Shown here piece by piece: positions 7,934 through 56,256 of a stretch of 64,000 nt of DNA. This DNA comes from an uncultured Hyphomicrobiales bacterium. Its GTDB lineage: Bacteria; Bacteroidota; Ignavibacteria; Kapaibacteriales; UBA2268. The stretch lies in NCBI GenBank assembly GCA_964465945.1, contig CAYXMM010000005.1:30703-94702 (forward strand). Direction: 5' to 3'. Made by a program: the position numbers and the translations under genes. Within the stretch, counting starts at the first letter, position 1, and every line of letters begins with the position of its first letter. Under the pieces are notes generated by a model. That model did not search any database. It saw only the letters and a list, made by a program, of their open reading frames with translations, and had not been told where the DNA came from.

Positions 7934-8005
7934 AATTAAAAATGGTCCCTTCGTCTAGCGGTTAGGACATCGCCCTTTCACGGCGGTAACACGGGTTCGA
8001 GTCCC
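7934..8005 (+). tRNA. tRNA-Glu (anticodon UUC); its 3' end is the prophage attachment site
   Basis: Cloverleaf folded by hand: acceptor ggtccct/agggatc (one G-U pair), D stem gtct/ggac, anticodon stem tcgcc/ggcgg with loop cTTTCAc (U33, anticodon TTC, A37), T arm acggg-ttcgagt-cccgt, discriminator A; no encoded CCA. Confidence 0.85.
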
Positions 8006-8010
8006 GTAGG
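7992..8010. repeat. attL core: 19-bp direct repeat tcccgtagggatcacttaa (tRNA-Glu 3' end)
   Basis: Identical 19-mer at 60220-60238; the left copy overlaps the tRNA T-arm/acceptor 3' half. Confidence 0.8.
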
Positions 8011-8014
8011 GATC

Positions 8015-8046
8015 ACTTAATAAGAAGCGAGTTATTTATTTAACTC
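8015..8046 (+). terminator. Intrinsic terminator supplied by the prophage just after the reconstituted tRNA-Glu end
   Basis: aagcgagtt-atttattt-aactcgctt followed by tttttt; an A-run precedes it on the other strand, so it could also end the leftward tape-measure operon. Confidence 0.5.
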
Positions 8047-19328: not shown

Positions 19329-19345
19329 TTTAACCTCTTATTTAG

Positions 19346-19418
19346 TGGCAGGGGCACGACTCGAACGTGCGACCTCTGGCTTATGAAACCAGCGAGCTAC
19401 CAACTGCTCTACCCCGCT
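19346..19418 (-). tRNA. Phage-encoded tRNA-Met (anticodon CAU) inside the tail gene run
   Basis: Reverse complement gives AGCGGGG-TA-GAGC-AGTTGGTA-GCTC-G-CTGGT-TTCATAA-GCCAG-AGGTC-GCACG-TTCGAGT-CGTGC-CCCTGCC-A: canonical D, anticodon (U33-CAT-A37) and T arms; 1-72 pair is an A-C mismatch; no encoded CCA. Confidence 0.65.
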
Positions 19419-30760: not shown

Positions 30761-33001
30761 ATGGAGAATCAAGATAAATTAATATTACCAAGAATTAAAC
30801 AACTCGGCAAGGAATATAAAATTAATTCAAATTCAGTTTCATACTGGAATAGTTTAATTGATAATCCAGACGCTCTTTTAAAACGAATTGGCAAGGATAT
30901 TCAAGTTTATGATGATATGCTTAACGATTCACATCTTTATGCTGTGGTTCAGTCTCGAAAGAGTGGGGTTTTATCGAAAGAATGGGAACTCGACCAGTAT
31001 GATAGTGAGCAGAGTATATATGATTTTGTTGAAGTTGTACTTAATAATTTAGATATTCATGATTGTATTAGAAGTATTTTAGATGCTCCACTATTTGGAT
31101 TTCAACCTATTGAGATTATTTGGGAAGTGATTGACGGGAAGTTAATTCCTGTGAAACTTAATAAACGTCCGAGACAATATTTTAAATTTGATATTGATAA
31201 TAATTTGGTTTTTATTGATGATAATGGCTCAACTGAAATTACTCCAAATGATAAATTTTTAATTCCTCGCTACGAAGCCAGCCGTGATAATCCTTACGGA
31301 ACTCCTTTGCTATCTAAATGTTACTGGTCGATTGTTCTAAAGAATGATGCCCGTAAGTCTTGGTCAGTGTTTATTGAGAAATTTGGTATGCCGTGGGTGA
31401 AAACACTTTATAAATCGCAGAGGTATCAATCTCAAAAAGATGTCGACGATTTACTTGATAGAATTTATAGTTATTCCGCAGATTCTATGTTCGCTTTGCC
31501 TGATGATGTTGAGTTGGATTTAATAAATGGGACTCAAACCTCTTCATCTGAAATTTACAATGCTTTTATTAATAAATGTATGGAAGATGTGAGTGAGGTA
31601 ATCTTAGGGCATACTTCGGCTACTACTTCGACGCCTGGTAAATTAGGGAATGAGAATATGGCTCAAAGTGTGGTAGATAGGATTATAGAGTCAGATATGA
31701 TTTTGGTTGAATCTACTTTTAATACTTTAATTAAAAAAATAGTGGATTTGAACTTTAATACTAATCAATATCCTTATTTTAGATTGGTCGAAGAGCAAGA
31801 TATAAACAAAGATAGAGCCGAGAGAGATGCTATTTTGTATTCAATGGGATTGCGATTCACAGAAGATTACTATGTGCGTGAGTTTAATTATTATAAAGGT
31901 GATTTCACTTTAAGTAATAGCGATAATTTAGGAGATTTAAGCCCAAAAAAGCTTATGAATCCGAGTAATTTTATTAATATATTGAACTCGGACGATAAGG
32001 ATAAGATTGGCGAGAAAGAGCAAGAAGTTACAGACAAATTCATAGAGCATTTATTAGACCCAGATAAGAATGAGACTTTATTTACGGATTTAATCAAGCC
32101 AATTATTGATTATGCTGGCAAAAATAAACTTGATGATTTGAAAAAAAACTATTATAAAGCTTATAGCAAGATAGATGCAAGTGATTTTATTGAAATAATC
32201 GAACGAGCAATTCTCATTATTCAAATTTACGGCTTAAACTCGGTCGATGAAGAAGAAGAAGAGCAAAAAGACAGGTTTAATTACTTCAACAAAGATGATA
32301 TTTCTTTGCAAGATTTAATTTTTGCTTTGGATAAAGAGCCAGAAGAAATTGTTGCTTATTTTAGGTCAAAAGGAGTGAAAATTTCTGATGACTGGCAGGA
32401 TACTTTTAAAATTATCAAACAACACGCATTCACTGTTGCTGGTGTTGTTAAAATGGACTTATTGGTTGACTTTAAGGAGATGATTGAGAAAGCAATCAAA
32501 GAGGGATTAAGTCAAGAGGAGTTTAAGAAGCAGTTAAAGGAGAGATTTAAAGAGAAAGGTTGGCTGAAAGACAAAGATAATAATAAACTCATCGAACCTT
32601 GGAGATTAGATACAATTTACAGAACTAATCTTCAAGACGCTTTTATGCAGGGGCGATGGAACGGACACACTTTAAATATTAAGAATGCACCTTATGTGAT
32701 GTGTAGTTCGGTGATGGATAACTCAACGACATCGGATTGCCGTGCTTTAGACGGGCAAGTCTTCAGAATTGATGACGATTATTTTGCAAAGAATCTGCGA
32801 CCGCCAGGGCATTATAATTGCAGACGGATTACGATTTCTTTGAGTGAAAATTTAGTAAAAAAACGTGGGTATAAGGTAAATAAAGGTATTGATTTTAAAA
32901 ATCATCGTAATCAGAAAGGATTTGATAACAAAGGTAATCCTTGGTTACCTAATAAATCTGATTACCCAAGTGAATTATGGAAAGAATTTGAGAAAAAATA
33001 A
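30761..33001 (+). CDS. Portal protein fused to a Mu F-like minor head/morphogenesis domain
   Basis: 746 aa following TerL; C-terminal …DCRALDGQVF…PPGHYNCRRIT matches the Mu F-like domain signature. Confidence 0.7.
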   Translation: MENQDKLILPRIKQLGKEYKINSNSVSYWNSLIDNPDALLKRIGKDIQVYDDMLNDSHLYAVVQSRKSGVLSKEWELDQYDSEQSIYDFVEVVLNNLDIHDCIRSILDAPLFGFQPIEIIWEVIDGKLIPVKLNKRPRQYFKFDIDNNLVFIDDNGSTEITPNDKFLIPRYEASRDNPYGTPLLSKCYWSIVLKNDARKSWSVFIEKFGMPWVKTLYKSQRYQSQKDVDDLLDRIYSYSADSMFALPDDVELDLINGTQTSSSEIYNAFINKCMEDVSEVILGHTSATTSTPGKLGNENMAQSVVDRIIESDMILVESTFNTLIKKIVDLNFNTNQYPYFRLVEEQDINKDRAERDAILYSMGLRFTEDYYVREFNYYKGDFTLSNSDNLGDLSPKKLMNPSNFINILNSDDKDKIGEKEQEVTDKFIEHLLDPDKNETLFTDLIKPIIDYAGKNKLDDLKKNYYKAYSKIDASDFIEIIERAILIIQIYGLNSVDEEEEEQKDRFNYFNKDDISLQDLIFALDKEPEEIVAYFRSKGVKISDDWQDTFKIIKQHAFTVAGVVKMDLLVDFKEMIEKAIKEGLSQEEFKKQLKERFKEKGWLKDKDNNKLIEPWRLDTIYRTNLQDAFMQGRWNGHTLNIKNAPYVMCSSVMDNSTTSDCRALDGQVFRIDDDYFAKNLRPPGHYNCRRITISLSENLVKKRGYKVNKGIDFKNHRNQKGFDNKGNPWLPNKSDYPSELWKEFEKK

Positions 33002-33438
33002 TGATTGAATTTAATATTAACTCCGATGACCTGAATAATCAATTTGGTAAAATTCAAGGTGAAGTAAATAAAAAGATTGACCTCAAGAAAATATATAGAG
33101 GTGTCGGCGAGGTATTGCAGACGGCTGTTAACTTCCAATTTGAAGAAGAAGGGGCTTATTTAGGTAGGAAATGGGAGCCACTCGCAGCATCAACAATCGA
33201 AAGACGTAAGAAGTTAGGTAAATGGCCAGGTAGCATTATGCAGGTTACTGGGCGATTGAAGTCATCGTTTACTTATTCAATCGTTGGCAATTCGGTGATT
33301 ATAGGCACGAACGTATCTTATGCAAAAAAATTGCACTTTGGAATTGGACGAATGCCAGCTCGCCCTTTATTTACTTCACTGCTAAACGAAGAGACAAAGG
33401 ACGAGATTAAGCATGCTATTTTAAAGGGACTGGTGTAA
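33001..33438 (+). CDS. Virion morphogenesis protein (Mu G / Phage_tail_S-like)
   Basis: 145 aa; WEPLAASTIERRKKLG…IMQVTGRLKSSF matches the W.PL…R…G…tGrL.S signature of Mu gpG-like proteins. Confidence 0.55.
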   Translation: MIEFNINSDDLNNQFGKIQGEVNKKIDLKKIYRGVGEVLQTAVNFQFEEEGAYLGRKWEPLAASTIERRKKLGKWPGSIMQVTGRLKSSFTYSIVGNSVIIGTNVSYAKKLHFGIGRMPARPLFTSLLNEETKDEIKHAILKGLV

Positions 33439-33449
33439 TCTAATATTAT

Positions 33450-33947
33450 TTATACTTTATAAATTAAATTTCCTATTTTTTTAATTTTGTCTCTGATTTG
33501 ATTAAGTAGTTGTAGATTAACATTGTTTAAAGTTTCTTTTTTATTAGGGTTTAAATTTGGTTTTTCATACATGACAGAAATACACCTTTTCAATTCAAAG
33601 CATGAATCTTGAAGTATTTTTAATTTATCTTGGATATCTCCCTTTTGTATATCATAAAATATTGTATAATTTTGCATTGTTTCAATATTCTTTATAATAT
33701 TAATAAATACCTCTTCATATTTACTTAAATCAATGTTAATATAATTATTATTATATATTTGGTTTAGTTCAATTGCCGAATTTGACAGATAATTATAATA
33801 TTTTATTAATGTTTTAAAGTAATAATCATGCTCTCTTATTTTTTTGTTAATTCTAAGATAAATGTAAATTACTGCAATAAAATTTAATAATGATAAAAAA
33901 GAATTAAGTAAATCCCCGTATGTTATATCAGTCAAACAATTCATCAA
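33450..33947 (-). CDS. Small N-terminally membrane-anchored protein; third gene of the GHKL/STAS-like operon
   Basis: 165 aa; N-terminal TM (LLNSFLSLLNFIAVIYIYL), remainder soluble; ATGA start/stop overlap with the upstream gene. Confidence 0.4.
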   Translation of the reverse strand: MMNCLTDITYGDLLNSFLSLLNFIAVIYIYLRINKKIREHDYYFKTLIKYYNYLSNSAIELNQIYNNNYINIDLSKYEEVFINIIKNIETMQNYTIFYDIQKGDIQDKLKILQDSCFELKRCISVMYEKPNLNPNKKETLNNVNLQLLNQIRDKIKKIGNLIYKV

Positions 33948-34321
33948 TTGAGATATTCTCTATTAGCATTTGTAATATATTCATCTATTATTTCCCGAAT
34001 ATTTGAATTTTCCGTTGAAGTAATTATTAAAGTTTTTAAGACTCTGTCGCTTTTATATTTTCTAGACAATTCGCCAAATGATCCATCGTAAAAACTTGAA
34101 GGTCTAGTTAATAAATCGTCTACATTAACTACGAGTTTTACATTATTTTTTTCTGCTTCTAAAAATTTAGGTTCTAATATCGAATTTAAAAACCTTTCAC
34201 CTGAATTCTTCTCACCATTATTTTCTTCATTTAAATACCTCTTCCCAGGTACTTTTGAGAAGTCTGTTGCAATATTTATCATTAGATTATCCATTAAATT
34301 CCCAATAATAATACGTTCCAT
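33944..34321 (-). CDS. STAS-like (DUF4325-type) small protein
   Basis: 125 aa; VNVDDLLTRPSSFYDGSFGEL matches the …vDF.gV…sSF.DE.fg.L signature I recall for STAS-like DUF4325 proteins that partner with GHKL ATPases; overlaps upstream gene by 35 nt. Confidence 0.45.
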   Translation of the reverse strand: MERIIIGNLMDNLMINIATDFSKVPGKRYLNEENNGEKNSGERFLNSILEPKFLEAEKNNVKLVVNVDDLLTRPSSFYDGSFGELSRKYKSDRVLKTLIITSTENSNIREIIDEYITNANREYLN

Positions 34322-35279
34322 TAAAAGGAATGTTTTTTTCTATATACTCATCCTTTTGTGGTTCAGCCAAAATATTATTGGCAAAAATACGCAAATTTTG
34401 AATATTACCATCATTTAATATTTTATTGATAGTTGGTAATCCTCTACCTCTATGTTGTTCTTTTGTTCTTGACAAATTTGCCTCGTTTTTTAATATCATT
34501 TTTAGTTTTTCAGAAGCATTATAACTAATTAAACCTATATATTTTTTTTTATCTTCAATTGTGTTCATAATCCCTTTCCCGTGATCCATAAATACAAATT
34601 GAAATGCTTTTAAGTTGTTGTTGTAAAAAACACTAAGCCACCATTTTTCAGAGGAATTTTGCTCACCAGCATGTTCTGCCGTGTTATCCATTATTTCCGT
34701 AAGAACAGTCATACAATCAACGATTGTATCTTTGTTTATACTAGGAAATTTTGAATTTATAAATTTATAAATTTGTTCTATCAACTCTATGCTTCTATTT
34801 TCATATGCTAAAATTTGAAACATTTCACCAATACTATCATGCACATCAATGCCGGCTCCCTCTTTTGATGTATATTGATGGAAACCTGAATCTGAAATAA
34901 AAGTATCTACATCGTTACTTAAAGGTGATATAAATGAAATAAAATGTCTCTTTTGAGGGTATTTGTAAAACACTGAAACTAAATACATTAAAGTAGATGT
35001 ATCAGTTATACTAACATTTTCAAAACTCAATGCAACATACTTGTTATTGTTTATCAATTTTATTGCTGTATTTATTATTTTTTCAATTTCTTTATAATTT
35101 TGTAATAATTCTAAATTCTCTGGAAACTTTATTTCTTTCTTTTTTAGACTTGTTATAGGTGTTCCAATATTTTCTTGTTGTAATTGCCTTTTATTACTTT
35201 TCTTTTTCCTGTTTTTACGTTTATTTTCTTTTATTCTATTAAATTTCTTCCTTTCATTTGTAGTATGTAATTTTTTCAT
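34287..35279 (-). CDS. GHKL-superfamily ATPase (anti-sigma-factor-kinase/histidine-kinase-like) with a highly basic N-terminal tail
   Basis: 330 aa; MTVLTEIMDNTAEHAG (N-box E…N..H), FMDHGKGI (G1 box D.G.G), HRGRGLPTI (G2 box); N-terminal 40 aa are ~50% K/R. Confidence 0.5.
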   Translation of the reverse strand: MKKLHTTNERKKFNRIKENKRKNRKKKSNKRQLQQENIGTPITSLKKKEIKFPENLELLQNYKEIEKIINTAIKLINNNKYVALSFENVSITDTSTLMYLVSVFYKYPQKRHFISFISPLSNDVDTFISDSGFHQYTSKEGAGIDVHDSIGEMFQILAYENRSIELIEQIYKFINSKFPSINKDTIVDCMTVLTEIMDNTAEHAGEQNSSEKWWLSVFYNNNLKAFQFVFMDHGKGIMNTIEDKKKYIGLISYNASEKLKMILKNEANLSRTKEQHRGRGLPTINKILNDGNIQNLRIFANNILAEPQKDEYIEKNIPFNGTYYYWEFNG

Positions 35280-35441
35280 ATTCGTAAATTAGTTACTTCA
35301 CTTTAACATATTTTGTCGTATTCCAACATTCAAATTTAAGCCATTAATTCCAAACACGCAAGGGCTTTATGATTTTTTTTTGACTTCCTTACAAAATATT
35401 ATTTAATGTGATTAGGGATATTTTTATCTCCCTTTTCACAA

Positions 35442-35777
35442 TCACCACTCCCCAGATGCTATTATCGGATATTGCTTTGCTAAATGTGAAACATAAATCC
35501 AACAATCCAAATCGCCCTTGTAAGATATTACTTTGACTTTTACTCGCTGGTAAAAAGACGGAACACCTTCTAATTTATCTAATAAAGCCAGCGTTTTATC
35601 ATCGACTTCATAAACTTCACCTTTGATTTGTCCCTGCCCTTTGATTGCGAATGGAAATTGCGGTCCAGCGTGTAAATCAAACCCTTGTGCTACACCAAAG
35701 ATTGGTTTTAATGGGGAGAGCAACCTGTGATTTGGTTGCCCTTGCTTTAATGTTCCATAAACAAATACTAAATGCAT
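35442..35777 (-). CDS. AIG2/GGCT-fold gamma-glutamyl(amine) cyclotransferase-like protein
   Basis: 111 aa; VFVYGTLKQG motif and downstream GEVYEV…LDKLEG…YQRVKVKV with catalytic Glu, typical AIG2/GGACT. Confidence 0.75.
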   Translation of the reverse strand: MHLVFVYGTLKQGQPNHRLLSPLKPIFGVAQGFDLHAGPQFPFAIKGQGQIKGEVYEVDDKTLALLDKLEGVPSFYQRVKVKVISYKGDLDCWIYVSHLAKQYPIIASGEW

Positions 35778-36211
35778 TTTGTTACCTCTAATTTATTATA
35801 ATATTGTTTTGATAAAAACTCTTTACCTTTCAGCAAATGGTTTAAATATTTTTTACTAGGCTTTAGTCTAAAATCCACAAAGTAATTATTGGCTATGTAA
35901 ACGAAAGCCCATTTATAACCATACTTTGTTTTAACTAACATTTCAATTCGGTTATAATGAAAAGGGCAACCCTCAAATCTATCTAACTTTTTTATTTCGT
36001 TTTTACTTGCTAATTCATAAAGAACCCCTTCGACTTTTTCACCAATCTTATAATGAATATTAGCAAAGCCCTCACCCAATCGAAATGCTTTTTTTGAAAA
36101 TCTAAGTGTAGAATTTTCGATTGTTCCTTTCTCATAGCCAGTAAATTTCACTTGCCTTTCTATCATTCTTTCGACGTTCATATTTGAACCATAAGCGAAG
36201 TAGTAAAACAT
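35768..36211 (-). CDS. GGCT-fold gamma-glutamyl cyclotransferase-like protein (second paralogue)
   Basis: 147 aa; YFAYGSNMNVERM motif and VEGVLYEL…LDRFEG…YNRIEMLV. Confidence 0.75.
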   Translation of the reverse strand: MFYYFAYGSNMNVERMIERQVKFTGYEKGTIENSTLRFSKKAFRLGEGFANIHYKIGEKVEGVLYELASKNEIKKLDRFEGCPFHYNRIEMLVKTKYGYKWAFVYIANNYFVDFRLKPSKKYLNHLLKGKEFLSKQYYNKLEVTKCI

Positions 36212-36441
36212 TAAAGTTCCTCAACAAATTTATACTTGATTAAATCCTCTAAGAAATCTTCGCAGCAGTTAGACCTAATAATAACTGAATTATCTACATA
36301 ACATCTTTTTGCTGTTTCGGACATAAATAAATTAATATTATCTCTAAATCCGAATATTGAAAGTTGATTAAGTTGATTAACAAAATCAACTGGGTTCTGG
36401 GATTTAATTACTCCACCACCTAATAATTTATATTTTTTCAT
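36211..36441 (-). CDS. Small hypothetical protein (candidate substrate/partner of the amidoligase cassette)
   Basis: 76 aa; start overlaps stop of the downstream GGCT gene; Cys-rich middle (RSNCCEDF). Confidence 0.3.
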   Translation of the reverse strand: MKKYKLLGGGVIKSQNPVDFVNQLNQLSIFGFRDNINLFMSETAKRCYVDNSVIIRSNCCEDFLEDLIKYKFVEEL

Positions 36442-36515
36442 TTTATTACCCTTTATTTATTATTTTAAATTTTTCATTATCTAAATATTCACAGTTAATG
36501 CAGTCTGATGAGTTT

Positions 36516-36605
36516 TTACATTCTCATTGCTTCTTCTTTTGTGTATCTTTTTGCTTTCCAACTATTATTATTTTTGTCTACCCAATACCCTTTTTCTAAT
36601 TTCAT
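36516..36605 (-). CDS. Unannotated 29-aa basic peptide ORF (MKLEKGYWVDKNNNSWKAKRYTKEEAMRM) with a strong Shine-Dalgarno sequence
   Basis: AAGGAG 6 nt upstream of the ATG; sits between the amidoligase gene and the 76-aa ORF. Confidence 0.25.
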   Translation of the reverse strand: MKLEKGYWVDKNNNSWKAKRYTKEEAMRM

Positions 36606-36636
36606 TTTAAACTCCTTTTGAGAAAAGAGAGGTTGG

Positions 36637-37566
36637 CTAAGCTGCCAACTCTCTTGTTCTGTTTTGAAAATAATTTATTAAATCGTTGTTTAAAAATCTT
36701 CTTAAGTTTACATCATCAGCATTTTCGATTTCTGTTCGTTTGGAAATCTCAATCAATCTTGCTAAAAATTTTATCCAGTTTGAAATTTTCTCAAAACTTA
36801 CTGAAGCCCCATGTTGTCTAAATTCTACTGAATTTTGTCTCCAAAATGATTGAGTATTTAATTTATAATATCTACTTTGATTTGTTATTAAACTTTCAAT
36901 CTCTCTTAAACTTATTGCATTGTCAATTTTTATTTTATAATTAGCTACTTTCATTGTGTGGCAGTAGCTGTTAGAATTTCCTCTTCTTGATTGTGGCATA
37001 AATCCATCAATCCAAGTTTCTAAGTTTGCATAATTTTTATATAAATTTTTCCAAGTTTCCAATTCAAAGTTCGAAGCATCAAAGTGAATATGAACTCCAC
37101 AAGATTTGTTTGTTTTTGCTTCTAAGCCCCTTGTGATTAAAAGTACTGTTTTAAGTTGTCTTAATCCATCTTCGCCTTGTAATTTTGGTGAAACAATTTC
37201 AAAAGAATTAGCACCTTGAAGTGAAGCGTCCCTTACAATTTTCCAATGGTCTCTTGTTTGGTGATTGTAGCCTTCGGCGTTTGTGTTAATTCCTGCGTTT
37301 CTTAGTTCAGTTTCTAATTCTTGCATTTTAATTCCAAAAGCTTCAATCTCAACTCCAAAAGTATGGTTGAATTGGAAGTTTGTTAATGAAGTGCTTATTC
37401 TTGTGTTAAGTTGTGCCTCAGCCCATTTTTTATGAACGTTGAAAGCAAATCCGTAATTTGTTCCAAGTAATTCAGCAACTTGATTTCTTGTCAATCCCAA
37501 ATCAAAAAGCAATCTCATTTTTGCTGTTTTGTTTAGCGTGCTGTTTATTATTTGTTCTTGTGTCAT
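36637..37566 (-). CDS. Putative amidoligase (Amidoligase_2 / glutamine-synthetase-like COOH-NH2 ligase family)
   Basis: 309 aa; N-terminal FGVEIEAFG motif and overall size fit the Amidoligase_2 family, which Pfam describes as occurring next to AIG2-type cyclotransferases. Confidence 0.55.
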   Translation of the reverse strand: MTQEQIINSTLNKTAKMRLLFDLGLTRNQVAELLGTNYGFAFNVHKKWAEAQLNTRISTSLTNFQFNHTFGVEIEAFGIKMQELETELRNAGINTNAEGYNHQTRDHWKIVRDASLQGANSFEIVSPKLQGEDGLRQLKTVLLITRGLEAKTNKSCGVHIHFDASNFELETWKNLYKNYANLETWIDGFMPQSRRGNSNSYCHTMKVANYKIKIDNAISLREIESLITNQSRYYKLNTQSFWRQNSVEFRQHGASVSFEKISNWIKFLARLIEISKRTEIENADDVNLRRFLNNDLINYFQNRTRELAA

Positions 37567-37760: not shown

Positions 37761-37994
37761 GTGATTTTATTAACTAAAAATTTATTATTTTTGCAAATGA
37801 CATTAACCGAATTAATTTATTCAGATTTAGAGAAAAGGCGACTCTTTTACCTTAATTCAAACGAAGAAGAACTAAGGCAATTATATAGTGAAATCAATAG
37901 CTTTGAAGATGTAAGAGAAGCAAAGTTAATTAAAAAAGAACTTGGATTATTAATTAATTTACTTTATAAGCCGATTAAGATTAAATCAACTTAA
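37761..37994 (+). CDS. Small hypothetical protein
   Basis: 77-aa ORF, the only plus-strand ORF between two minus-strand blocks. Confidence 0.2.
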   Translation: MILLTKNLLFLQMTLTELIYSDLEKRRLFYLNSNEEELRQLYSEINSFEDVREAKLIKKELGLLINLLYKPIKIKST

Positions 37995-38261
37995 TTTTTT
38001 TATTAAAGTTTTATAATTAATTCCTAATTCTTTTGCTATCTTTTGCTTACTAACATTTTTATACTTATCCTGCTTGATTACTCGTTCTACGACTCTGTCG
38101 AAATAAAGCAACGACGGAATATAAATTTGAACTCCGCTATAAAGCTCAATAAGTTTTTTCATTGCATCAATCCCAATAATGTGGGCAATCTCTTGGAGCT
38201 GTTCTTTTGCTCTCAAATCCTCAAATGCTATATTTTCTATTATTTCTTTTTTTATACTCAT
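37986..38261 (-). CDS. Small helix-turn-helix DNA-binding protein
   Basis: 91 aa; C-terminal KQKIAKELGINYKTLIKKL is an HTH. Confidence 0.35.
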   Translation of the reverse strand: MSIKKEIIENIAFEDLRAKEQLQEIAHIIGIDAMKKLIELYSGVQIYIPSLLYFDRVVERVIKQDKYKNVSKQKIAKELGINYKTLIKKLS

Positions 38262-55515: not shown

Positions 55516-56256
55516 TTGTATAAACCTTCTATTAACAATAGGTTGAAAGTGAAAAAAAATTTCATACAAGAGCAATTAAGAGAAAATCTTAGATACATTT
55601 TTAAAAAAACTTCTGCGTCAATGAACAAAATGCATGAAAATAAAGTTGTTTCTAAAGGGTATATGTCGAAATATTTAAAAGATGAGAATATGTTTTTAAG
55701 TAGTGATAAAATTGAGAGCATATCTAATTATTTAGGTATTCAAATAAATGACTTAATTAATAAAGATTTATCGAAATCTGCCGACCCACTTAATATAAGT
55801 AATAATACAATTCCTATAGAATTAAAAAAACAAAAACCAGAAATCCAATTCATCGAACAAAAAAACGGGCAAGTAACAGAAATTCCATTATATGAAAGCA
55901 CCGTATCGGCTGGAATTCCGAAAGAGATATTTGATTATCCACCAATGAAGATAGCAGTAGCACCAATTAAACAAGGTGCGTTTGCAGTGAAAGTTAGTGG
56001 TGATTCGATGATAGATTTTAAAATTGATGATGGTGACACATTGGTGGTATTCCCTACGACTGAATTAAAATTCAATCAATTAGTAGTAGCAAAATGTGGA
56101 GATGCTTACACTGTTAAAAAATTAGAAAAGAGAGATGATGATTATTTGTTAGTGCCTGGCAATAAAAAGTATGAGCCAGTAATAATAGATGATACAGACA
56201 AGTTTGAAATAATCGGCTATGTGCTTTATATTATGAAAAAGCCGTTTTTAAGTTAA
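55516..56256 (+). CDS. CI-like repressor: N-terminal XRE HTH plus C-terminal S24 (LexA-like) autopeptidase
   Basis: 246 aa; VKVSGDSMID (Ser nucleophile) and VVAKCGDAYTVKKL (Lys) of S24; N-terminal HTH. Confidence 0.7.
   Translation: MYKPSINNRLKVKKNFIQEQLRENLRYIFKKTSASMNKMHENKVVSKGYMSKYLKDENMFLSSDKIESISNYLGIQINDLINKDLSKSADPLNISNNTIPIELKKQKPEIQFIEQKNGQVTEIPLYESTVSAGIPKEIFDYPPMKIAVAPIKQGAFAVKVSGDSMIDFKIDDGDTLVVFPTTELKFNQLVVAKCGDAYTVKKLEKRDDDYLLVPGNKKYEPVIIDDTDKFEIIGYVLYIMKKPFLS

Follow-up and report, generated by a model that had tools for sequence, protein, structure and literature searches.

What could a signalling kinase, a STAS-like protein and a small membrane protein be doing between the head genes and the replication genes of a prophage? 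The question is posed by a 64,000-nucleotide (nt) stretch of DNA, which we call the window, from an uncultured bacterium submitted as Hyphomicrobiales and placed by GTDB in the Bacteroidota (contig CAYXMM010000005.1, positions 30,703 to 94,702). Its minus strand encodes three consecutive proteins, P1, P2 and P3, between positions 33450 and 35279. An earlier note on this DNA had read them as a kinase, its STAS-like partner and an anchored membrane protein, and all three of the open reading frames (ORFs) that it listed are indeed present. The trio is a conserved three-gene cassette that recurs on bacterial chromosomes and in phages. As to its function, we see about an even chance that it is a phospho-switch cassette for abortive infection or superinfection exclusion, resembling the kinase/antitoxin/toxin operon VapKSC with a membrane effector replacing the PIN nuclease. 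The features on which the argument draws are the following.

34287..35279, minus strand: P1, 330 amino acids; predicted kinase in which a basic helix at the N-terminus precedes a STAS-like domain and a SpoIIAB/RsbW-like GHKL Ser-kinase domain.
35145..35279, minus strand: P1 residues 1-45, Lys/Arg-rich N-terminal helix, net charge +13.
34800..35144, minus strand: P1 residues ~46-160, STAS-like alpha/beta domain.
34290..34790, minus strand: P1 residues ~164-330, GHKL (Bergerat-fold) kinase domain with N, G1 and G2 boxes.
33944..34321, minus strand: P2, DUF4325 STAS-like protein, longest ORF 125 amino acids; probable start ATG 34294, giving 116 amino acids; presumed kinase substrate.
34094..34096, minus strand: codon of P2 Ser76, the predicted phospho-acceptor (Ser67 when counted from ATG 34294).
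33450..33947, minus strand: P3, ORF of 165 amino acids, or 164 from ATG 33944; small membrane protein, presumed effector.
33855..33911, minus strand: transmembrane segment of P3, LLNSFLSLLNFIAVIYIYL, read from the sequence.
35280..35441, minus strand: intergenic region of 162 nt upstream of P1, the sole gap in this part of the gene array; possible promoter of the cassette.

The genes are tightly coupled whichever start codons are used. P1 ends in a TAA stop read at 34289-34287, and P2 has three in-frame candidate starts: ATG 34321, which gives a 35-nt overlap with P1; ATG 34294, which gives an 8-nt overlap falling in ATGGATAA; and ATG 34282, which lies past the P1 stop. An alignment of 75 P2 homologues has its common N-terminus at ATG 34294. 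P3 may begin at TTG 33947 or at ATG 33944; the latter overlaps the TGA stop of P2 by 1 nt (TGATG) and is the start used in the public gene call. The overlaps of 35 nt and 4 nt reported earlier are correct for the longest ORFs but give way to 8 nt and 1 nt with the starts that we favour.

P1 carries the three boxes expected of a GHKL ATPase, IMDNTAEHAG (N199), FMDHGKGI (D232/G234/G236) and HRGRGLP (R277/G278/G280). Pfam matches to HATPase_c_2 and HATPase_c are weak and sub-threshold, while PHROGs returns a full-length family of unknown function, phrog_3364 (E 2.7e-32). An exhaustive search of representative sequences finds 1332 relatives of P1 at E<=1e-3 and 606 at E<=1e-10; each representative stands for a cluster at 50% identity, and the family therefore holds at least 606 clusters. 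It is large and divergent, with members of 320-370 amino acids at 25-30% identity. A word-indexed protein search with P1 alone returned P1 itself and one weak match, and with a 60-sequence alignment it returned two proteins, a poor yield that is probably due to Lys-rich words swamping the candidates. Among 60 aligned homologues, D232, G234, G280 and N199, the Asn expected to bind Mg-ATP, are invariant, and the full set of invariant or near-invariant residues extends to E195, T200, H203 and A204, to W213, to G236 and I237, to R277 and G278, and to a C-terminal G321-T322...W326. In this numbering the N box reads E195xxxN199TxxH203A and the G2 box R277-G278-x-G280-L-P.

An AlphaFold2 model of P1 built on the 60-member alignment (predicted local distance difference test (pLDDT) 89.8, predicted template modelling score 0.82) contains a helix at residues 8-39, an alpha/beta domain at ~46-160 and a Bergerat-fold domain at ~164-330. 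A fold search with the kinase domain gives as its closest matches SpoIIAB, RsbW and UsfX, which are true anti-sigma factors, together with the SiaB kinase. The boxes and the fold matches thus agree with the anti-sigma-type kinase proposed in the earlier note, and the model further indicates that P1 is a STAS domain fused to a GHKL anti-sigma-type Ser kinase, the STAS-like domain having been overlooked before. The poly-Lys/Arg N-terminus had been noticed (+13 over the first 45 residues), although not its spread: the median net charge of this segment is +15 over 138 members of the family. By this count the Lys/Arg-rich N-terminus is a conserved family trait, and the basic helix is a candidate nucleic-acid- or membrane-binding element. 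At the column of the canonical STAS phospho-site P1 has T92-D93 (34999-35004); the column holds Thr/Ser in 36 of 60 sequences and Asp in 18 of 60, a pattern that hints at cis-autophosphorylation or a phosphomimic of P1's own STAS domain.

Kinases of related design have been described in two systems (Chambers et al., EMBO J 2026, PMC13373217). CapK, which combines a helix-turn-helix (HTH), a STAS and a GHKL domain, is turned on by single-stranded DNA and phosphorylates the repressor CapS, a STAS protein with a winged helix-turn-helix (wHTH), and the pair de-represses downstream immune operons (PMC13373217). VapK, a STAS-GHKL kinase, is proposed to phosphorylate on S48 the small STAS protein VapS, which binds and inhibits the PIN toxin VapC; this kinase/antitoxin/toxin operon gave ~2-log protection against phage Bas42 and, according to its authors, responds to a global stress signal (PMC13373217). 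When the P1 family profile was aligned to the VapK kinase domain with hhalign (VapK residues 1-286, transcribed from the authors' AlphaFold3 model file), the match reached 95.5% probability and E 1.4e-8 over 155 columns, and it covered the kinase domain in full, with the FxGT motif at its C-terminus. A direct BLAST comparison of P1 with VapK gave no significant match.

P2 leads to the same systems. It matches the Pfam family DUF4325 (PF14213) at E 1.6e-6 and 28.2 bits, above the cutoff of 23, and bears the DUF4325/STAS-like signature PSSFYDGSFGEL. In a comparison of the P2 family profile with the whole PDB, the best match was VapS (9z7o_A, E 0.0044, 20.3 bits). Because of these sequence matches to Pfam and to VapS, we assign P2 as a DUF4325 STAS-like protein, as had been suggested. 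The P2 family is better conserved than that of P1, with a mean column identity of 42%, and contains invariant R, F, F and G residues as well as a near-invariant Ser-Phe pair (S76-F77 in the numbering of the 125-amino-acid ORF): position 76 is Ser in 71 of 75 members, and the Phe that follows is invariant. The partner of Ser76 in the alignment is S66 of the 9z7o_A chain; subtracting the 18-residue tag offset visible there makes this S48 of native VapS, and we predict Ser76 to be the phospho-acceptor of P2. The protein, of ~116 amino acids, comprises the STAS-like domain only and has no wHTH or other DNA-binding domain. P2 (33947-34321) also matches phrog_5816, a family of unknown function with 441 positions, over its C-terminal positions 339-439 only, and some phages may encode a larger protein that ends in DUF4325, possibly as a kinase fusion. 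Given the 1332 representative sequences related to P1 at E<=1e-3 and a P2 score above the Pfam threshold for DUF4325, we take the trio to be genuine genes and not chance ORFs.

P3 contains a single strongly hydrophobic N-terminal segment followed by predicted helices, in keeping with the N-terminally anchored membrane protein proposed earlier, and searches of Pfam, PHROG, NCBIfam and PADLOC assigned it to no family. A single-sequence AlphaFold2 prediction is all helical. The transmembrane segment is acidic on its N-terminal side (D6, D11) and basic on its C-terminal side (RINKKIREH). Because of the positive-inside rule, these flanking charges suggest an N-out, C-in topology, which would place the helical domain on the cytoplasmic side of the membrane, where P2 is. 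By BLAST, P3 of the window falls outside the main family of third genes found at other loci, and a colinear match of hidden Markov models is weak (6.9 bits, with high compositional bias); we regard P3 as their positional and architectural equivalent, at most a possible homologue, and by analogy as the presumed effector. An HlyE-like pore was considered for the third genes and rejected, as weak matches occur in just 2 of 70 third-gene proteins.

How widely the cassette occurs was determined with a degenerate DNA pattern (WW, 17 residues, DxGxGI, 36 to 46 residues, RGxGLP) applied to one genome per species. The scan returned 84 loci, and all 84 encode members of the P1 family (E 1e-23 to 1e-110 for the intact genes). 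A P2-family gene lies directly 3' of P1 at 74 of the 76 loci with room for a second gene, and a third ORF of at least 120 amino acids (median 190) comes next at 66 of the 69 with room for a third; 62 of these 66 have a strongly hydrophobic segment within their first 90 residues. The third genes largely belong together (65 of 70 in one BLAST-linked family), and this main family has no Pfam model and gives no PIN match in 70 loci. The loci span Acidobacteriota, Bacteroidota, Verrucomicrobiota, Spirochaetota, Planctomycetota, Patescibacteria, Alphaproteobacteria, Bdellovibrionota and others, and the trio is seen in at least 10 phyla, mostly on chromosomes. A few loci break the pattern: at L017 (1972-2928) no DUF4325 gene follows P1 and a 623-amino-acid ORF begins 102 nt downstream, while both L032 and L055 seem to be frameshifted or degraded. 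Alternative effectors or copies in decay might account for such loci.

Phages carry the cassette as well. The same pattern found 12 viral contigs in IMG/VR, all 12 with P1 and P2 and 9 of the 12 with a gene of the third family, and a search with the P2 consensus located the trio in two phage records, Marinobacter phage AS1 and a Helicobacter prophage (P1-family E 5.5e-32 and 1.2e-36, respectively), each with a transmembrane third gene. Phage AS1 (MK088078.1; locus L098, 3416-5794) is cultured, and its P1, P2 and P3 are AS1_41, AS1_40 and AS1_39, all annotated as hypothetical. There the trio comes directly after AS1_42, the gene for a cI-like HTH protein, on the same strand, and AS1_42 is divergent from cro (AS1_43). 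Additionally, the gene table of Francisella phage KIRK lists in order a CI repressor, a 293-amino-acid hypothetical protein, a DUF4325 protein and a transmembrane protein (PMC7924643). Searches that started from the window itself were negative: tblastn of P1 and P2 against phage records and megablast of the 13-kilobase (kb) region found no match, and P1 alone as query found no relatives among the genome contigs.

Around the trio no fourth gene is conserved, and the neighbours vary. Those upstream include Eco57I-type and type I methylases, specificity subunits, ResIII, AccI, an SLFN-type helicase, a reverse transcriptase (RVT), KilA-N, a resolvase and a transposase, along with unrelated housekeeping genes; those downstream include DEAD and ResIII helicases, AAA_15 and AAA_21, PIN, DUF4238, resolvases, Mob_Pre and housekeeping genes. 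Among the neighbours on viral contigs, transcriptional repressors recur most often. At L063 (2519-7396), L036 (1316-5997) and L006 (3139-7920), from two Bacteroidota and one Cloacimonadota, the trio stands directly 3' of type I hsdM-hsdS on the same strand with hardly any spacing, as if embedded in the restriction-modification (RM) operon, and at L065 it follows a type II methylase. A link to MADS was rejected, the upstream PADLOC matches to mad2 and mad5 being cross-hits of ordinary type I HsdM and HsdS. The trio is thus a mobile accessory cassette that is partly associated with defence or immunity genes; in line with the accessory role proposed earlier, the survey of its homologues places it in mobile, defence-rich and prophage contexts and not in housekeeping operons of the sigma-B type.

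What the three proteins might do together can be pictured by analogy with VapKSC. At rest, P2 would keep the cytoplasmic helical domain of P3 inactive. An infection or DNA-damage cue would then switch on the P1 kinase; by analogy with CapK and VapK the cue could be single-stranded nucleic acid, possibly sensed by the Lys/Arg-rich helix and the STAS/GHKL groove. Acting as a Ser/Thr kinase, P1 would phosphorylate P2 on Ser76, phosphorylated P2 would release P3, and P3 would damage or depolarize the membrane, halting growth before the invading phage finishes its cycle. A prophage-borne cassette would in this way shield the lysogen, and hence the prophage, from other phages. The activity of P1 on P2, the binding of P2 to P3, the toxicity of P3 and the defence phenotype are all modelled on the studied relatives, and the trigger is the least certain step. 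We favour this phospho-switch because of the fold of P1 and its invariant catalytic boxes, the profile match to VapK and the alignment of the P2 Ser with VapS S48, and because of the VapKSC precedent (PMC13373217), the synteny across phyla, the varied defence and mobile neighbours, the positions beside phage repressors and the topology of P3.

Several observations weigh against it. An aromatic residue is needed for activation by single-stranded DNA, W68 in CapK and F54 in VapK (PMC13373217), and by hand alignment this residue has no clearly conserved counterpart in P1: the equivalent column (I91 in the window) is neither aromatic nor conserved, and column 56, at the start of the STAS domain, is Phe in 51 of 60 sequences and Leu in P1 of the window. 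P1 may therefore respond to a different trigger from CapK and VapK. For P3, the tie to the main third-gene family is marginal (6.9 bits), the predicted structure is of low confidence (pLDDT 61), and no resemblance to any toxin or pore family could be detected. The association with defence genes appears moderate on inspection of the neighbourhoods and is diluted by many housekeeping neighbours. PADLOC-DB v2.0 has no model that matches the trio of the window (E<=1) or that of L063 (E<=1e-3). Furthermore, the trio of the window lies at the end of an early lytic array and not beside a repressor, and it may therefore not be expressed in the lysogen.

Could the same module serve something other than defence? 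The neighbourhoods, variable and rich in resolvases, transposases and Mob_Pre, the compact and self-contained build of the trio, and the response of VapKSC to a global stress signal (PMC13373217) would also suit a general stress-responsive toxin-antitoxin or addiction module, whose membrane toxin would be freed on DNA damage or loss of the element and would stabilize the element or promote dormancy, with defence as an incidental effect. We consider this unlikely, as the repeated embedding of the trio by RM systems and beside phage repressors is typical of defence genes, but it is compatible with a phospho-switch used in defence and the two are not mutually exclusive. The flow of information might instead run in the opposite direction, with P3 as a sensor or anchor that relays a signal from the membrane or envelope, such as the injection of phage DNA or stress on the envelope, through P2 to P1, and with P1 phosphorylating or sequestering another target as in partner-switching systems where the kinase doubles as an anti-sigma factor. 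The likeness of the P1 kinase domain to SpoIIAB, RsbW, UsfX and the SiaB kinase would fit, as would the very fast evolution of P3, common among receptor-like or phage-interacting proteins, and a basic helix that could contact a partner or the membrane. Beside the trio, however, there is no conserved gene for a sigma factor or another candidate target, and the studied relatives take their signal in at the kinase and send it out via the partner of the STAS protein, which makes a sensory P3 distinctly unlikely.

A regulatory pair of the CapK/CapS type, or a phage device that hijacks a host sigma cascade as the earlier note had also entertained, would control adjacent genes. CapK and CapS do apply the same kinase and STAS logic to downstream immune operons, and the trio, like capKS, often lies just 3' of RM operons; but P2 is a protein of ~110 amino acids that lacks the DNA-binding domain of CapS, P1 has a basic helix where CapK has its HTH, and P2 is followed by a small transmembrane gene beyond which nothing is conserved. 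Sigma-factor genes are not recurrent near the trio in our survey of genome and viral loci, and the cassette is mostly chromosomal and spread over many phyla. Regulation of neighbouring genes is thus very improbable, and of the earlier proposal of a signalling or defence moron we retain an accessory kinase/STAS/membrane module with a probable role in defence or exclusion while dropping the sigma-factor hijack. It is scarcely probable at all that P3 is a holin- or antiholin-like protein gated by phosphorylation in a module for lysis timing. P3 is admittedly small, membrane-bound and phage-encoded, and the trio of the window sits at the end of the early array, abutting the morphogenesis genes. 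At the genome-contig loci examined, though, its neighbours are RM, other defence, mobile or housekeeping genes rather than lysis genes; in AS1 it is part of the immunity region, with ~2.7 kb between it and the lysozyme gene; and in the window no endolysin adjoins it.

The setting within the window is that of a prophage. Host genes for a Cys/Met pyridoxal-phosphate-dependent enzyme and a GNAT protein lie, with a tRNA-Glu gene, to the left of ~8 kb; the tRNA-Glu gene (7944-8016, plus strand), a possible integration site, sits where host and prophage meet on the left. A tRNA-Met gene (19345-19418, minus strand) lies within the block of phage structural genes, and minus-strand genes for the major head protein and the protease occupy 25-27 kb. 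The packaging operon, on the plus strand, encodes a ParB-methyltransferase, TerS, TerL, a portal/MuF fusion and a neck protein and terminates at 33438. The 746-amino-acid ORF at 30761-33001 (plus strand), with a portal match over residues 10-617 and a match to a MuF-like minor head or DNA pilot protein over residues 456-710, appears to be the portal-MuF fusion. From the other side, a minus-strand early array begins at RecT (54203), divergent from an S24 CI/LexA-like repressor gene at 55516-56256, and runs through RecT, YqaJ, a helicase, a replication initiator, DnaB, a Holliday junction resolvase, an amidoligase, a 76-amino-acid ORF, two GGACT genes and the trio. As the earlier note held, the trio opposes the packaging operon and stands between the head genes and the replication module; the Holliday junction resolvase, DnaB and the replication initiator lie beyond it on the minus strand. 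It is, however, not an isolated counter-oriented insert: it closes the early array at its distal end and converges with the packaging operon. The convergent stop codons at 33438 and 33450 are separated by 11 nt. No terminator-like hairpin was found in this gap in a terminator scan, and the two opposing waves of transcription might run into each other or read through. A scan of the 35280-35441 region for sigma-70-like promoters did no better than on shuffled sequence, and candidate local repeats were dismissed as AT-rich chance matches.

The GC content of the 33-38 kb stretch is 28-29%, compared with 31-36% in the flanking phage modules, which fits acquired accessory genes. Upstream of the trio, an amidoligase cassette (35442-37566, minus strand) consists of Amidoligase_2 (36637-37566), the 76-amino-acid ORF (36211-36441), which belongs to no family, and two GGACT/AIG2-like gamma-glutamyl cyclotransferases (35768-36211 and 35442-35777). 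PHROGs classes its genes as moron or auxiliary metabolic genes, and its GC content of ~28-29% is like that of the trio. A functional 4.1 kb island uniting the two, as once suggested, finds no backing at other loci, where the amidoligase and GGACT families do not recur beside the trio; only the shared low GC content supports a joint accessory status. Just upstream of these accessory genes, a 91-amino-acid protein (37986-38261, minus strand) has a C-terminal HTH-like segment, KIAKELGINYKTLIKKL, and no Pfam match, and may be a phage transcription regulator.

How, finally, does the trio compare with known systems? VapKSC is likewise a three-gene operon in the order kinase, small STAS protein and effector, found in variable and partly defence-associated genomic contexts. 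Its kinase also joins a STAS and a GHKL domain, with homology to P1 at the profile level and in the kinase domain only, and a small VapS-like STAS protein is encoded directly downstream of the kinase in both. The trio differs in the extra Lys/Arg-rich helix of P1 and in its third gene, which encodes a transmembrane protein of no known family instead of a VapC/PIN nuclease. On these sequence grounds, we place the trio outside VapKSC and P1/P2 as a distant sister of the VapK/VapS pair. CapK/CapS shares the pairing of a STAS-GHKL kinase with a STAS-domain substrate and the frequent position directly downstream of RM operons. It is set apart by the N-terminal HTH of CapK and the C-terminal wHTH of CapS, for which P1 has a basic helix and P2 nothing comparable, and by the regulated immune operon downstream of CapS, where P2 is followed by a transmembrane gene and then by genes that are not conserved; the trio is not a CapK/CapS system on either of the two DNA-binding domains. 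In contrast to the partner-switching systems SpoIIAB/SpoIIAA, RsbW/RsbV and SiaB/SiaC, the trio has no linked sigma factor or PP2C phosphatase, its kinase is fused to a STAS domain of its own, and it is mobile and accessory instead of residing in a housekeeping developmental or stress operon.

A further parallel is one of architecture. In phage lambda, rexA and rexB follow cI, and RexAB pairs a cytoplasmic sensor with a membrane protein. The trio similarly follows a cI-like repressor gene in phage AS1 and in the KIRK gene table, and it too would combine a cytoplasmic sensor with a membrane protein. The likeness is one of gene order and architecture, with no relation in sequence or fold expected, and it does not extend to the window, where the trio does not adjoin the repressor. 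The cI-adjacent position in cultured temperate phages nevertheless offers a directly testable model of prophage exclusion. A bolder proposal, to which we give a little less than even credence, is that the trio is the founding example of a widespread anti-phage system, composed of a nucleic-acid-sensing STAS-GHKL kinase, a VapS-like protein and a fast-evolving membrane effector, and serving in temperate phages as a cI-adjacent, RexAB-like exclusion device.

The earlier suggestion of a novel system must be narrowed, as the kinase and STAS pair has been known since 2026 from CapK/CapS and VapKSC (PMC13373217). That paper makes no mention of a transmembrane variant, and our literature searches, on DUF4325 among others, found no description of the trio and nothing closer than these two systems; the membrane-protein version of the module thus appears undescribed within the literature searched. 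Despite its size and phylogenetic breadth, the family is absent from PADLOC, and P1 and P3 have no Pfam families, so that annotators of defence systems would miss it. If our reading is correct, the phospho-switch of CapKS and VapKSC gains a third class of output, a membrane effector, and the sensor pair would be a modular front end for different killing mechanisms, with the conserved basic helix of P1 suggesting a mode of sensing possibly unlike that of CapK and VapK.

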